Origin: an archaeon
Lineage (GTDB): Archaea; Iainarchaeota; Iainarchaeia; Iainarchaeales; JAAZKV01
NCBI GenBank assembly: GCA_036170245.1
Contig: JAVHOV010000007.1
Coordinates: 1 to 57,111 of the forward strand
Reading direction: 5' to 3'
Length of the DNA stretch: 57,111 nucleotides
Shown in pieces: positions 10,009 to 18,767 of the stretch (positions are counted from its first letter, which is position 1; each line of letters starts with the position of its first letter). A program made the position numbers and the translations under genes. The notes under the pieces were generated by a model. It did not search any database, was not told the DNA's origin, and saw nothing but the letters and a program-made list of their open reading frames with translations.

Positions 10009-10980
10009 ATGTTTACTCAGGGTAAGGAAGGCTTATTTTTCAGGGATCTTTGTATTGATCCTCATAGGACTCCTAAATCAAAGCTTGCTTTTTTGTCTCA
10101 TGCTCATTCAGATCATGTTAAACTTTCAAAGAAAACTGAATTTTTAGCAACTCCCCAAACAATTGATTTGGTTAAGAATAGATTCGGGGAAGCAAATTTT
10201 CAACCTGTTGAAATGAATAAGAAAACGAAAGTTAGTGATTTTGAATTGGAGTTAAAACCAAATGGGCACATTTTGGGGTCTTCTCAGGCTCTGCTTAGTA
10301 CTGATGGAAAAGATTTTGCTTTTTCAAGTGACTTTAGATTACAAAATTCTCTTCTCTTTAAGGGTGCAGAAATTCTCAAAGGGGATACTTTGGTTCTTGA
10401 AACTACTTTTGGTGCTCCTCAGTATGTTTTTCCTAAACAGGAAGAAGTTGTTTCGGACATGGTTTCGTGGATTAGTAAAAATGCAAAAAGCGGATTGGTT
10501 TTATTAGCAGGGTATTCTTTAGGAAAAGCTCAGGAGTTGACAAAGATTTCAAATGAAGCCGGATTTACTCCTGTGGTTCATGATTCTATTTTTGAATTAA
10601 ATGAAATTTATCAAAATCATGGTGTGAAATTGGGCACTTATGAAAAGCTTGATCACAATCTGAAAGATTTTAGTGTATTGATAATGCCTCCTCAATTGGT
10701 TGACAGGCATTTGTTTCCAACTCTGGAGCATTTTGATAAAAGAAAAATATTTTCGGCTCTTGCGACAGGTTGGGAACATAGAGGGGCATTTGACAGAACT
10801 TTCAAATTAAGCAATCACTCTGATTTCAACGATTTGATTGAATATGTAACATTGTCAAATCCAAAACTAGTTTTGACTGATCATGGATTTTGCGAGGAAT
10901 TTGCAAGAAAATTAAATAAACTTGGGTTTAATGCAAAACCATTGACTCAACATAAGCAGCAACTAATTAGTGAGTTTTAA
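10009..10980 (+). CDS. Metallo-beta-lactamase-fold exonuclease (short COG1236 / ligase-associated exonuclease-like form)
   Basis: HAHSDH metal motif, PNGHILGS, ETTFGAPQYVFP and GYSLGKAQE motifs. Confidence 0.65.
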   Translation: MFTQGKEGLFFRDLCIDPHRTPKSKLAFLSHAHSDHVKLSKKTEFLATPQTIDLVKNRFGEANFQPVEMNKKTKVSDFELELKPNGHILGSSQALLSTDGKDFAFSSDFRLQNSLLFKGAEILKGDTLVLETTFGAPQYVFPKQEEVVSDMVSWISKNAKSGLVLLAGYSLGKAQELTKISNEAGFTPVVHDSIFELNEIYQNHGVKLGTYEKLDHNLKDFSVLIMPPQLVDRHLFPTLEHFDKRKIFSALATGWEHRGAFDRTFKLSNHSDFNDLIEYVTLSNPKLVLTDHGFCEEFARKLNKLGFNAKPLTQHKQQLISEF

Positions 10981-11039
10981 GATTAAGGGTTTTTTGTGCT
11001 TGAACTGATTTTAAAAAACCTTATGAGAATAGTTTCTTT

Positions 11040-11342
11040 ATGGTTCATGTAAAAGTTACTAAAGAATTAATAAAAAAAGTTGCTCAAAATGCAAGATTAA
11101 ATTTGACTGATGCTGAGCTTGAGAAATTTGTTCCTCAAATAAAAGAAATTATCCTGTCTTCTTTTAACAAACTTGATGAATTTGATGCTAGTGACACAAA
11201 ACCTTCTTTTCAGCCAATTGAAATGAGTAATAAATTTAGAAAAGATGAGGTTAGAAAAGGAATTACTCAAGAAGAAGCTTTGAGTAACGTTATTTTGAAA
11301 TTAAAGGAAGAGGGTTATTTTAAGGGTCCAAAAGCGATGTGA
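11040..11342 (+). CDS. gatC: Asp/Glu-tRNA amidotransferase subunit C
   Basis: 100-aa ORF directly upstream of gatA/gatB, with VAQNARLNLTDAELEKF...L and DTKPSFQP motifs. Confidence 0.85.
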   Translation: MVHVKVTKELIKKVAQNARLNLTDAELEKFVPQIKEIILSSFNKLDEFDASDTKPSFQPIEMSNKFRKDEVRKGITQEEALSNVILKLKEEGYFKGPKAM

Positions 11343-11375
11343 TTTTTTAGTAATTTGTGTTTGAGTTGAATTTTT

Positions 11376-12791
11376 ATGAAAAGAGAAGAAACAATAGAAT
11401 TTTTTGTTGAGAATGCAAAAAAGGATTTTTCAGTTGTTGAAAAAAACCTTGCTCAAATTATCGGCGAAATAAAAGACAGTGAAAGAAAGGGGTTAAATTA
11501 TATTGAAGAATTTGATGCTAAAGATGTTTTAAATCAGTTGGCTGAATTAAAGAAGAGTTTTGAAAAAAAAGATTCAAAATATTATGGGCGATTGTTTGGG
11601 GTTCCTGTTACTGTTAAGGATGCAATTTGCGTTAAGGGAATTGAATCAAAAGCCGGTTCAAAGATTCTTAAAGGCTATAAGCCTCTTTTTGATGCAACTG
11701 TAATAGAAAGAGCAAGAAGAGAAGGGGCAATAATTTTAGCAAAAACCACTCAGGATGAATTTGGTTTTGGAACATTTTCAACTCACACAATTAAAGTTCC
11801 AAAGAATCCTTTTGATTCAGAACGTTCTTGCGGTGGTTCAAGTGGTGGGGCGGCTGGATTCACTTCTTTTACAAAGTCATATCACGTTGCAATTGGGGAA
11901 AGTACTGGCGGATCAATTGCGTGTCCTGCATGCTTTTGCGGTGCGGTTGGTTTCACTCCGACTTACGGGTTAGTTTCCAGATTTGGTTTGATTGATTATG
12001 CAAATTCTCTTGACAAGATTGGAGCTATTGGAAGAAATGTTAGTGATGCTTCACTGTTACTTGAAGTAATTAGTGGTCTTGATGAGAAAGATTCAACTTC
12101 ACTAGGTAATGGGTTTGAAAGAGCTGAAGTTTTGCTCAAAAGAATTGCAGTTGTAAAAGATTTTTTCCAAAACTGTGATGCTGATGTAAAAAAAGTAATT
12201 CAAAATAAAATTAATGAATTGAAAAAATTTTATATTGTTGAGGAAGTTTCTCTGCCTCTTAATATTGAGTATGCTTTAAGTGCATATTATGTTATTGCAA
12301 CTAGCGAAGCTTCAACTAACCTTGCAAAACTTTCTGGATTAAGATATGGTGTTCAGGATGATGTTGAAGGAAAGCACTTTGATGAATATTTTTCAGAAAT
12401 TAGAAGCAAAGAATTTAGTGAAGAAGCGAAGAGAAGAATAATTTTAGGGACATTTGCAAGAATGAGTGGATTTAGAGATGCTTATTATTTGAAGGCAATG
12501 AAAGTTAGAACTAAATTAATTGAAGAATTTAATACAGCATTTGAAAAATATGATTTGTTAATTTATCCGACAATGCCTACAATTGCTCCAAAATTTATTG
12601 ATATTGAAAAATTGACTCCTATGCAGAATTTTGCGATGGATCTTTGCACAGTTCCTTCAAACTTAGCTGGTCTTCCTCATATTAGTGTTAATGCTGGAAG
12701 AGTAGGGAATATTCCTGTTGGTTTGATGATAGTTGCACCTCATTTGGAAGAAAAACGATTATACTCTCTTGCAAAGGTGATTGAAGAATGA
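11376..12791 (+). CDS. gatA: Asp/Glu-tRNA amidotransferase subunit A (amidase family)
   Basis: Amidase signature GGSSGGAAGF...GESTGGSIACPA. Its stop overlaps the gatB start (ATGA). Confidence 0.9.
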   Translation: MKREETIEFFVENAKKDFSVVEKNLAQIIGEIKDSERKGLNYIEEFDAKDVLNQLAELKKSFEKKDSKYYGRLFGVPVTVKDAICVKGIESKAGSKILKGYKPLFDATVIERARREGAIILAKTTQDEFGFGTFSTHTIKVPKNPFDSERSCGGSSGGAAGFTSFTKSYHVAIGESTGGSIACPACFCGAVGFTPTYGLVSRFGLIDYANSLDKIGAIGRNVSDASLLLEVISGLDEKDSTSLGNGFERAEVLLKRIAVVKDFFQNCDADVKKVIQNKINELKKFYIVEEVSLPLNIEYALSAYYVIATSEASTNLAKLSGLRYGVQDDVEGKHFDEYFSEIRSKEFSEEAKRRIILGTFARMSGFRDAYYLKAMKVRTKLIEEFNTAFEKYDLLIYPTMPTIAPKFIDIEKLTPMQNFAMDLCTVPSNLAGLPHISVNAGRVGNIPVGLMIVAPHLEEKRLYSLAKVIEE

Positions 12792-17313: not shown

Positions 17314-17402
17314 TGGGCAGGAGGAGATTTGAACTCCTGACCGCACGATTACTGATATTTTAATTATCAGTCGTGTGCTCCAACCAGCTGAGCTACCCGC
17401 CC
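17314..17402 (-). tRNA. tRNA-Ile (anticodon GAU) with about 15-nt intron at the canonical 37/38 position
   Basis: Minus-strand cloverleaf. Acceptor GGGCGGG/CCUGCCC, D-arm GCUC-AGCUGGUUG-GAGC, anticodon stem CACGA/UCGUG, loop CUGAUAA interrupted by AUUAAAAUAUCAGUA (17350-17364), T-arm AGGAG-UUCAAAU-CUCCU. The intron UAUCAG pairs with CUGAUA. Confidence 0.85.
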
Positions 17403-17593
17403 ATTATTTGAGTGCTCTCTACAAAAACTAGTTTTGGGAAAGCTTTAAATTGCTACTTATAGTGCTTCATTTTGACTAATTATTCATTTATTTACATAAG
17501 AGCCTTATTAATTGAAAAAACACTTTTTATTAGATGTTACGCCGGCAATTTAGTCTCAAAATGAATTTAAATAGTTAAATAATTCATTTTAAA

Positions 17594-18505
17594 ATGGATG
17601 CCTTTTCCATTTTTGATAATGCTCATACTTGGTTAAATAGAGGGGTTTTTGTTCATGGAACTTCTTTTGAGATAAAAGAAATCCTATTGCATCTTACTAT
17701 TCCTTTTGTTATTAAAAAACTCAAAATAAAATACAATAAATTAAAAGAATGGGCAAGCGGTAGAAAGCCAATTTCAATTAGCGACCTAACAAAATTAGTT
17801 GAATTATGCCCCGTTGATTTAAGTAATTCCATAAAGTCAAAATTGAGTCTAAAGGACTTACGATTTAGTTGTAAATACTCCCCTCATAAAGTAAAATTCC
17901 CCTTAACTATTTCTGAAAATTTAGCATACATTATAGGAATTATACTTGGCGATGGGACTTTAAGCGGAAATAAAAATAAAAAGAAAAGTTGGGTAATAAG
18001 GGTTTATTTTGATAATCTTCAGCACAGACTAATTTTTAATGAATTAATGGAGAAAGAATTTGGAATACAACCAATTAATAGCCAAAGAAAAAAGAATTGC
18101 TTTGAATCAACAATAGCTTCAAAAATTATTTATCTTTATATTAGCAATTATTTTAATTTACATGTTGGGAGAAAAGCAAATAAAATAGAGTTCCCAAATA
18201 ACTTACTTAGCGGATCTAATGAGATAAAATGTGCTTTAATCCAAGGGTTATTTGATTCTGATGGAACAATAACTCACGGCGCAGTCAAATATTCAACAAC
18301 AAGTAAGATAATGGCTGAACAAGTCAGAACAGTTCTTTTGGAAATGAACATAGATACAGGGCTAAATGTTTGGCTTAAAGATGCAAAATACTTTCCTTTA
18401 TATATAGTTTCGATAAAATCAGGGAAGAATAAACTGATTTTTGCAGAAAAAATTGGGTTCAAACACCCAATTAAAAAGATTTTGCTTGAAGATTTATTTT
18501 ATTAG
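17594..18505 (+). CDS. Double-motif LAGLIDADG homing endonuclease, free-standing
   Basis: LAGLIDADG motifs LAYIIGIILGDGTL (about 17921-17962) and ALIQGLFDSDGTI (about 18233-18271). N-terminal extension of about 110 aa. The stop codon at 18503-18505 overlaps tRNA-Gln nt 1-2. Confidence 0.85.
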   Translation: MDAFSIFDNAHTWLNRGVFVHGTSFEIKEILLHLTIPFVIKKLKIKYNKLKEWASGRKPISISDLTKLVELCPVDLSNSIKSKLSLKDLRFSCKYSPHKVKFPLTISENLAYIIGIILGDGTLSGNKNKKKSWVIRVYFDNLQHRLIFNELMEKEFGIQPINSQRKKNCFESTIASKIIYLYISNYFNLHVGRKANKIEFPNNLLSGSNEIKCALIQGLFDSDGTITHGAVKYSTTSKIMAEQVRTVLLEMNIDTGLNVWLKDAKYFPLYIVSIKSGKNKLIFAEKIGFKHPIKKILLEDLFY

Positions 18506-18621
18506 CCCCTTCGTCCAGTGGCCAAGGATGATACCCTCTGGTAGTTTTTGATAAGAACTAACAAAAAAGTTTTGTTTTTTGGAGTAAGGTATAGACCCCA
18601 GTTCGAATCTGGGAGGGGCTA
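18504..18621 (+). tRNA. tRNA-Gln (anticodon CUG) with 45-nt intron (18542-18586)
   Basis: Acceptor AGCCCCU/AGGGGCU (A1-U72, as is typical of archaeal tRNA-Gln), D-arm GUCC-AGUGGCCAA-GGAU, anticodon stem AUACC/GGUAU, loop CUCUGG^A split by the intron, T-arm CCCAG-UUCGAAU-CUGGG. The intron 3' end UUGGAG pairs with CUCUGG. Confidence 0.85.
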
Positions 18622-18634
18622 TTTAACCTTTTTT
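18609..18634 (+). repeat. Direct repeat copy 1: tRNA-Gln 3' end plus trailer
   Basis: CTGGGAGGGGCTATTTAACCTTTTTT covers the T-stem 3' strand, the acceptor 3' strand and the trailer. Confidence 0.6.
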
Positions 18635-18736
18635 GATCAGTTTTTAGTTTCCCCGAGGGATTTTTTCCAGCAAAACAAAGCTTTGCTTTGTGAAGCGCCC
18701 CAAAACAATGCTTTTGGAGTGCAGGAAAAAAAGGCT

Positions 18737-18767
18737 CTGGTTGGGGGGGCTATTTTAACCTTTTTTT
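18737..18767 (+). repeat. Direct repeat copy 2: degenerate duplicate of the tRNA-Gln 3' end
   Basis: CTGGTTGGGGGGGCTATTTTAACCTTTTTTT lies 128 nt downstream of copy 1. There is no T-loop or other tRNA parts upstream of it. Confidence 0.6.

Follow-up and report, generated by a model that had tools for sequence, protein, structure and literature searches.

Homing endonuclease genes are thought to persist within introns and inteins that excise from the product of the host gene. How can such a gene be kept outside of them, directly against a tRNA gene? This question is raised by a locus in a 57,111-nucleotide (nt) stretch of archaeal DNA (contig JAVHOV010000007.1; "the window" in this text). There, an open reading frame (ORF) of 303 amino acids (aa) with two LAGLIDADG motifs runs into the first nucleotides of a tRNA-Gln gene. 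An earlier note on this DNA, made from the letters alone, described the ORF as a free-standing homing endonuclease gene (HEG) physically coupled to the 5' end of the tRNA, and we found this arrangement to be intact and genuine. We predict with good confidence that the segment 17461-18503 is a free-standing homing endonuclease cassette that is active, targets tRNA-Gln(CUG) and provides the promoter of this tRNA.

Genomes, loci and searches

The host genome of the window is 867 kb long, consists of 43 contigs, has a G+C content of 31% and is 86% complete. The HEG family was sampled in about 45 loci of 33-83% identity from species-representative genomes and metagenomes (Iainarchaeota-type metagenome-assembled genomes, MAGs). 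All tRNA-Gln genes were gathered from 36 related genomes, and the presence or absence of the HEG at the genus level was scored over 22 genomes. Related genomes are designated by "G" numbers and loci by "L" numbers.

In the protein database, full-length relatives form about 30 clusters, all of 260-350 aa. The names carried by homologues include Candidatus Iainarchaeum, Forterrea and Diapherotrites, which makes the host a DPANN archaeon. No close relatives were found in the viral contigs of IMG/VR, where the best matches have at most 34% identity and cover the core only; a viral vector of the cassette, sought in the same contigs, was rejected. A literature search found no published description of tRNA-flank LAGLIDADG genes in archaea.

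The gene encodes an intact LAGLIDADG endonuclease

The 303-aa ORF with its two motifs is present as first described. The Pfam family LAGLIDADG_3 matches the protein in two stretches (6.6e-20). Both motifs, LAYIIGIILGDGTL (motif 1, aa 110-123) and CALIQGLFDSDGTI (motif 2, aa 213-226), are located in one chain, as in double-motif LAGLIDADG homing endonucleases, and each of them ends with an acidic catalytic residue. In the profile alignment of the family, GDG of motif 1 (D120) falls on D21 of I-DmoI and SDG of motif 2 (D223) falls on E117. These two catalytic positions are invariant across 28 family sequences. The motifs, whose possible degeneration the earlier note had considered, are thus not degenerate in the comparison with I-DmoI.

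The AlphaFold (AF2) model built from 28 homologues has a mean confidence score (pLDDT) of 93.5 and shows the tandem alpha-beta-beta-alpha-beta-beta-alpha fold of monomeric LAGLIDADG enzymes. Foldseek matched it to the intein endonucleases TliVMA, PI-PfuI and PI-PkoII and to I-DmoI with E-values from 5e-13 to about 1e-8. The best solved matches are the archaeal intein endonucleases (down to 5e-13); I-DmoI has a template modelling (TM) score of 0.75 (about 1e-8). The protein therefore combines an intact endonuclease fold with intact catalytic residues. The ratio of nonsynonymous to synonymous substitution rates (dN/dS) is 0.10 against the nearest relative, the metagenomic locus L117 (83% identity), which demonstrates purifying selection at the level of the compared sequences. 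By all features checked computationally this is a bona fide LAGLIDADG endonuclease, and cleavage itself is predicted.

The N-terminal extension had been described as helix-turn-helix (HTH)-like. Its approximately 100 aa are modelled as a separate five-helix domain (pLDDT 88), and all of its top PDB fold matches are HTH proteins of the Cro/C1-XRE kind, although the matches are weak (E 0.4, TM 0.63). Pfam P22_Cro was matched in 4 of 21 family members (best 7e-4), and Pfam found no domain in the N-terminus of the window protein itself. Thus the extension stands as a separate domain, and its HTH nature is plausible rather than proven.

The tRNA gene at the end of the ORF

The tRNA at 18504-18621 was missed both by ARAGORN with default settings and by Rfam. 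The intron mode of ARAGORN named it 'Lys(ctt)', a call that is ruled out by the geometry of the bulge-helix-bulge (BHB) motif, by the A1-U72 pair and by the orthologues. In the minimum free energy fold, only splicing at 37/38 yields a BHB motif, with a four-pair CUCU/GGAG helix and the bulges GG|U and UA|A. The tRNA has the pair A1-U72, the orthologue in G018, which has no intron, is identified as Gln(ctg), and the host genome encodes a separate tRNA-Lys(CUU). The gene is therefore tRNA-Gln(CUG).

The stop codon of the ORF overlaps this tRNA as the earlier note had it: it consists of T18503, A18504 and G18505, and its A and G double as tRNA positions 1 and 2. The intron of the tRNA, 45 nt long and at the canonical 37/38 site, starts 37 nt from the end of the ORF. 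The intron-containing tRNA-Ile that had been noted on the opposite strand is also there, namely tRNA-Ile(GAU).

The family is docked at one tRNA gene

In nearly all family loci with downstream sequence, the 5' end of tRNA-Gln(CUG) lies at -15..+34 nt of the HEG stop. This adjacency is far beyond chance, since almost every one of the ~40 homologues shows it. A full HEG precedes tRNA-Gln(CUG) in G000, G010, G018 and G021. The three orthologues from the genus (G018, G010 and G021; 46-54% identity) all abut this tRNA: the ORF extends 15 nt into it in G018 and G010, and its stop is 1 nt short of it in G021. Many family proteins terminate in SPLV, SPVV or SPFV, which is the translated 5' end of tRNA-Gln (AGCCCCUUxGUCUAG). 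The family members are always on the 5' flank of tRNA-Gln and never within it. Hence the location of the HEG 5' of tRNA-Gln(CUG) is invariant across the family. Homologues at unrelated loci, which could have broken the link with the tRNA, did not appear; essentially all of them are on tRNA-Gln(CUG).

Among about 25 tRNA-Gln(UUG) genes of related genomes, none is occupied by the HEG. The CUG and UUG isoacceptors share their first ~26 nt. Because the UUG isoacceptor is never occupied despite this common sequence, the anticodon arm probably belongs to the predicted cleavage site. Of the tRNA-Gln(CUG) genes linked to the HEG, about 70% contain one intron or two, and about 30% are intron-less (e.g., in G018); introns are found in about half of HEG-less CUG genes and in about 16% of UUG genes.

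Empty sites, remnants and mobility

The context of the window, tRNA-Ile on the reverse strand facing tRNA-Gln on the forward strand, is found without the HEG in G012, G008 and G003. Homology to these empty sites stops at GCTACTTAT (17452-17460), with the junction at 17460. The cassette stands in place of approximately 45 nt of the native tRNA-Gln promoter and leader of the empty sites. L117 and G012 share both flanks, and the cassette is the difference between them. The orthologous loci with and without the ORF that the earlier note wished to see are thus both at hand.

A full HEG is present in 4 of the 22 genomes of the genus. In G009 only the last 38 codons remain (tblastn 9.6e-9), between the stop of the upstream gene and the tRNA, and in G030, G031, G013 and G026 there are C-terminal remnants of 15-25 codons. 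A second context, with a gene of a 380-aa flavin adenine dinucleotide (FAD) enzyme upstream of the HEG, occurs in G018, G010 and G021, and this context is empty or holds a remnant in G017, G013 and G026. The tRNA is the sole sequence common to both contexts; therefore, the tRNA gene must be the recognition feature of the element. The identity of the HEG is 45-51%, compared with 68-76% for an adjacent housekeeping protein. In summary, the gene is present, absent or decayed at one fixed site among congeners, with remnants in at least five genomes, and it is inserted in two unrelated upstream contexts.

Two conserved features precede the start codon. In most family members a G+C-rich motif is found ~55 nt before the start (family consensus CCGGCA-N5-ACTCnCAAAA), followed by a TTTAAA box. 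The motif is a candidate operator or a candidate left end of the cassette. In the window the box is TTTAAATAG, a candidate promoter of a leaderless HEG mRNA. Some annotations include the upstream motif in the protein, as a spurious N-terminal extension (APA...).

At four other loci (L051, L083, L094 and L134) a 5' fragment of tRNA-Gln, from nt 1 to approximately 27-40, lies upstream of the HEG or of its remnant. It looks as if the cassette together with a new tRNA copy was inserted into the resident tRNA-Gln gene there.

Expression of the tRNA

The ORF spans everything 5' of the tRNA +1 position, so the native promoter of tRNA-Gln is gone. The C-terminal HP(I/L)KK is nearly invariant in the family. 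It is encoded by CACCCnnTTAAAAAG, which places ATTAAAAAG, extended as ATTAAAAAG(A/C)TTTTG, at -34..-26 of tRNA-Gln. The corresponding position of the empty sites is taken by TTTATAAA. Of the 16 genus genomes in which tRNA-Phe was matched, 15 have the tRNA-Phe promoter ATTAAAAAGCTTTTC (GCGACyATTAAAAAGCTTTTC), and the segment of the Gln-linked ORF is near-identical to it, with almost equal spacing to the tRNA. The remnant in G009 has lost the HEG promoter and still has the ATTAAAAAG segment. Because of the position of this TATA-like sequence, the TTTATAAA of the empty sites, the likeness to tRNA-Phe and the retention in G009, we favour a tRNA-Gln promoter embedded in the 3' coding end of the HEG, as far as sequence comparison can suggest it.

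Such an independent promoter is at least as likely as co-transcription. Co-transcription of the HEG and the tRNA with release by RNase P is possible. The TTTAAATAG box precedes the ATG by ~20 nt, the RNase P RNA is present in the host genome (100.9 bits), and trimming of a read-through transcript in the window would strip two of the three nucleotides of the HEG stop codon. Two other lines were discarded: conservation of synonymous sites in the HPxKK codons is uninformative as promoter proof at 31% G+C, and a scan for sigma-70 promoters is irrelevant, as the host is an archaeon.

Variation of tRNA-Gln(CUG)

Among 18 genomes of the genus, tRNA-Gln(CUG) shows eight different anticodon stems. Its acceptor also has several variants, and approximately half of the genes contain an intron; some of them have a second one in the D-loop. 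By comparison, tRNA-Gln(UUG) has two anticodon stems in 20 genomes, and each tRNA-Lys has two in 17 genomes and no introns. Both positions and sequences of the introns differ among HEG-linked tRNA-Gln genes. Cleavage in the anticodon arm, escape from it by a stem change or an intron, and co-conversion would fit the variability of stems and introns as well as the tRNA 5' fragments described above. The variation of tRNA-Gln thus fits a footprint of conflict with the HEG, and this evidence is correlative. The C5/T5 acceptor polymorphism was ruled out as a mark of co-conversion: the HEG-bearing L117 has T5.

Several observations concern other alleles of these tRNA genes. G021, G009 and G026 (L028, L063 and L076), which represent two genera, have tRNA-Gln(CUG) alleles with two introns (in the D-loop and at 37/38). 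The introns are closely similar, and congeners of these three genomes carry unrelated alleles. This suggests that the two-intron allele moved laterally with the cassette. The tRNA-Gln(UUG) gene of the host itself (C21:6341-6553, L060) has an unusually long intron (140 nt) at 37/38; in most congeners this gene is intron-less. At nine loci (L034, L038, L040, L044, L050, L056, L061, L073 and L074) elements of 60-95 nt lie directly 5' of tRNA-Gln(UUG) or tRNA-Gln(CUG). They start with a copy of tRNA nt 1-13 (AGCCCCTTCGTCT), which is followed by the hairpin GAGCCTTTT..AAAAGGCTC, by GCGAAAAA and by a segment that pairs back to the start of the element. The module of the hairpin plus GCGAAAAA also occurs within several tRNA introns.

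Other features of the locus

Coordinates of all features are collected in Table 1. A ~120-nt element (18646-18767) lies 3' of tRNA-Gln and ends with the second copy of the tRNA 3' end; it is not found in G008, G003 or L117. The element was considered as a decayed full copy of tRNA-Gln and rejected in this role: only its last ~35 nt are convincing, and the 5' part has z = 1.0 versus shuffles.

Table 1. Features at the tRNA-Ile/tRNA-Gln locus of the window
Feature	Position	Strand	Basis
tRNA-Ile(GAU), 15-nt canonical intron, divergent neighbour	17314-17402	-	Rfam tRNA 56.3 bits; ARAGORN intron mode
Flank common to HEG-less loci (tRNA-Ile promoter side)	17403-17460	.	Comparison with empty sites of G012, G008 and G003
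Inserted cassette, 1,043 nt	17461-18503	+	Empty-site comparison; L117 (with HEG) vs G012 (without HEG)
Conserved upstream motif ACGCCGGCA-N5-GTCTCAAAA	17539-17561	+	In most of the family, ~55 nt upstream of the start
TATA-like box TTTAAATAG, ~20 nt before ATG (putative)	17566-17574	+	TTTAAA conserved upstream in the family
LAGLIDADG homing endonuclease ORF, 303 aa	17594-18505	+	ORF call, Pfam, AF2 model, Foldseek, profile alignment, dN/dS
Cro/XRE-like HTH domain (plausible), aa 1-100; GRKPISISDLTKLV at 17759-17800	17594-17893	+	AF2, fold matches, P22_Cro
LAGLIDADG motif 1	17921-17962	+	D120 aligned with I-DmoI D21
LAGLIDADG motif 2	18230-18271	+	D223 aligned with I-DmoI E117
Codons HPIKK, CACCCAATTAAAAAG; candidate TATA box of tRNA-Gln, ATTAAAAAG, at 18470-18478	18464-18478	+	Likeness to tRNA-Phe promoter; kept in remnants
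tRNA-Gln(CUG), exons 18504-18541 and 18587-18621, BHB intron 18542-18586	18504-18621	+	ARAGORN, orthologues, fold
Oligo-T trailer CCTTTTTTGATC, likely to terminate the tRNA and any HEG transcript that reads through	18627-18638	+	Sequence
Second copy of tRNA-Gln 3' end and trailer, GGGGGGGCTATTTTAACCTTTTTTT	18743-18767	+	Not in empty sites of G008 and G003

Discussion

We propose that the element is a mobile cassette of ~1 kb that would carry one gene, for a two-domain LAGLIDADG enzyme with an N-terminal HTH of the Cro/XRE type, and its own promoter. The fixed home of the family would be immediately 5' of tRNA-Gln(CUG), where the cassette supplants the native promoter and leader, and its ORF would reach up to or into the first tRNA nucleotides. 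The enzyme presumably cuts HEG-less alleles of tRNA-Gln(CUG) in or next to the tRNA gene, and in the repair of the break this allele may then acquire the cassette and a part of the tRNA. Expression of the tRNA would be kept by a TATA box in the last codons of the ORF (HPIKK, ATTAAAAAG), ~30 nt before the tRNA +1 position; a transcript that runs from the HEG into the tRNA and is trimmed by RNase P may be an additional or alternative route. BHB introns and variants of the anticodon stem may give immunity to self-cleavage and may travel with the cassette (collaborative homing).

Could the protein instead be domesticated and immobile? A LAGLIDADG and HTH protein similar to WhiA, for example a transcription factor or a processing helper for tRNA-Gln(CUG), would explain the synteny, and domestication was one of the two origins that the earlier note had offered. 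WhiA shares the LAGLIDADG scaffold and an HTH and is among the Foldseek matches. In addition, the N-terminal HTH is conserved, purifying selection is strong, and the conserved upstream motif could be an operator. However, WhiA, which is conserved throughout its lineage, has a C-terminal HTH and has lost the catalytic residues. Our protein has an N-terminal HTH, both catalytic acidic residues are kept and invariant, and its distribution is patchy (4 of 22 genomes). The existence of decayed remnants and pseudogenes, as well as of intact tRNA-Gln(CUG) genes in genomes that have no HEG, also argues against domestication, which we consider unlikely.

The other origin suggested earlier was an ORF that had escaped or been displaced from an intron, with the 45-nt intron of tRNA-Gln as the possible remnant of its former home. 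On this reading, which we extended to an rRNA intron as the source, the ORF would be stranded here and its adjacency to the tRNA would be a one-off accident. It is true that the closest solved relatives are archaeal enzymes encoded in introns or inteins and that the intron is 37 nt from the end of the ORF. Yet all family members are on the 5' flank and none is inside the tRNA, ~30% of the linked tRNAs are intron-less and others have an intron in the D-loop, intron positions and sequences vary, and the intron and the cassette have no sequence similarity. A former home in this intron is thus very improbable. We give equally little credit to the cassette being the cargo or the scar of an integrase-type element with tRNA-Gln as its attachment site, the att remnant being 18743-18767. 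This duplicate of the 3' end and trailer is not in the empty sites of G008 and G003, tRNA-Gln 5' fragments precede the HEG at four other loci, and a recombinase element of a similar layout was published for Caldiarchaeum (PMC3293823). On the other hand, the 1,043-nt insert has one gene, with no integrase or other cargo, and the duplicate is only ~120 nt off and separated from the cassette by the tRNA. In L117, the nearest relative, the cassette is present without the duplicate, and L117 and G012 form a clean pair that differs in the HEG only. A search of the locus for an integrase gene and for direct att repeats derived from the tRNA found neither; the only repeat is the downstream copy of the tRNA 3' end.

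Several points weigh against the homing cassette that we prefer. Vertical inheritance over a long time with repeated loss could yield a part of the patchiness, and statements of absence are limited by the completeness of the MAGs (62-93%). ATTAAAAAG falls on the codons of conserved lysines, and the genome is AT-rich; the sequence could therefore be conserved at the protein level alone. As for the conflict over the tRNA, tRNA-Phe is also fairly variable (five stems in 16 genomes), and Lys is the sole control isoacceptor pair for variability. The link between introns and immunity is loose, as ~30% of HEG-bearing tRNAs are intron-less and about half of HEG-less CUG genes are intron-bearing. The compared genomes are related and hence are not independent samples, so that the evidence of conflict is correlative.

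By sequence and fold, the closest solved structures are I-DmoI, PI-PfuI, PI-PkoII and TliVMA, with which the protein shares the monomeric two-motif LAGLIDADG fold and the positions of the catalytic D/E residues. Those enzymes are encoded inside rRNA introns or inteins that remove themselves. In contrast, the HEG of the window is free-standing, has an extra N-terminal HTH and resides in a tRNA 5' flank. Its ORF precedes the mature tRNA and has no Hint domain, and the 45-nt intron has no ORF.

Functionally, the closest known systems appear to be the free-standing Seg and Mob endonucleases and the units of collaborative homing. T4-like phages have free-standing Seg and Mob endonucleases, and SegB is located in a tRNA gene cluster (PMC2988022). 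As in our case, where the promoter is a candidate one, a free-standing nuclease gene with its own promoter lies beside conserved genes and has a patchy distribution (PMC2988022). Seg and Mob genes spread by break repair with co-conversion of flanking DNA (PMC2988022), which for the HEG of the window would be the presumed route. They differ in being of the GIY-YIG or HNH types and in a viral genome, with neither a fixed overlap with a tRNA 5' end nor replacement of a tRNA promoter. Collaborative, or trans, homing is known from phages, for F-CphI with the psbA intron and for MobE with the I-TevIII intron (PMC6083498, PMC2790892). The likeness is a free-standing nuclease beside a gene with an ORF-less intron, which could interrupt the target and travel along; unlike group I introns, those considered here are BHB introns spliced by proteins, and ~30% of the tRNAs of the family are intron-less.

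In the tRNA-Thr of Caldiarchaeum, a 1.8 kb element encoding a DNA recombinase is inserted (PMC3293823). It resembles L051, L083, L094 and L134 in its insertion at a tRNA gene, with a 5' fragment upstream and an intron-bearing tRNA downstream, and differs in encoding a recombinase, whereas the LAGLIDADG endonuclease is the sole gene here. The idea of Randau and Soll, as cited in PMC4390854, is that disrupted tRNA genes resist mobile elements. The new elements of the locus are the archaeal chromosomal setting, the strict docking at a tRNA 5' end, the putative promoter embedded in an ORF and the possible partnership with BHB introns.

Adjacency to a tRNA gene is not limited to tRNA-Gln. The premise of the earlier note that archaeal LAGLIDADG genes are normally not free-standing is not supported by these DPANN genomes, which have many free-standing copies. 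We sampled 41 further free-standing LAGLIDADG ORFs of related genomes (loci L264-L303 and L008-L021; 11 ORFs had been sampled before). For 29 of the 41, a tRNA gene lies at -120..+60 nt relative to the stop, compared with a chance expectation of roughly 1%. At least 15 tRNA species are involved, including Leu, Arg, Thr, His, Asn, Lys, Val, Gly, Ala, Met and Phe. Most of the ORFs are on the 5' flank of the tRNA; some are convergent on its 3' end, and some read through the entire tRNA.

The host itself has a second free-standing LAGLIDADG ORF on another contig (C6:10740-11390, reverse strand, L003), of 216 aa and with no HTH domain. This ORF (region 10649-11390) ends 17 nt 5' of tRNA-Phe(GAA), and the codons at its end (SSPLKSFS) run across the tRNA-Phe promoter. 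In G014, G015 and G018 the corresponding position is taken by weak homologues over the full length (21% identity).

We tentatively suggest, with less confidence than we place in the cassette itself, that a superfamily of flank-docking LAGLIDADG endonucleases colonises the tRNA genes of DPANN archaea, one tRNA gene per lineage. Such enzymes would use tRNA end-processing and a promoter within the coding sequence instead of self-splicing. Cleavage pressure together with tRNA co-conversion would cause ORF-less BHB introns to arise and spread and anticodon stems to become hypervariable.

The gene seems to have reached a neutrality comparable to that of intron and intein residents by docking at a tRNA 5' end, replacing the promoter that it destroyed and relying on tRNA maturation. 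The family would also offer new LAGLIDADG specificities that are naturally monomeric and directed against conserved tRNA sequences. If the target is in the anticodon arm, the locus would link a selfish nuclease with the fast evolution of a tRNA gene and with the spread of tiny archaeal introns that have no ORF. If true, this would be relevant to an old problem, namely why archaeal tRNA genes are so rich in introns or are split, and the existence of the superfamily would provide a direct mechanism for the frequent interruption of these genes.

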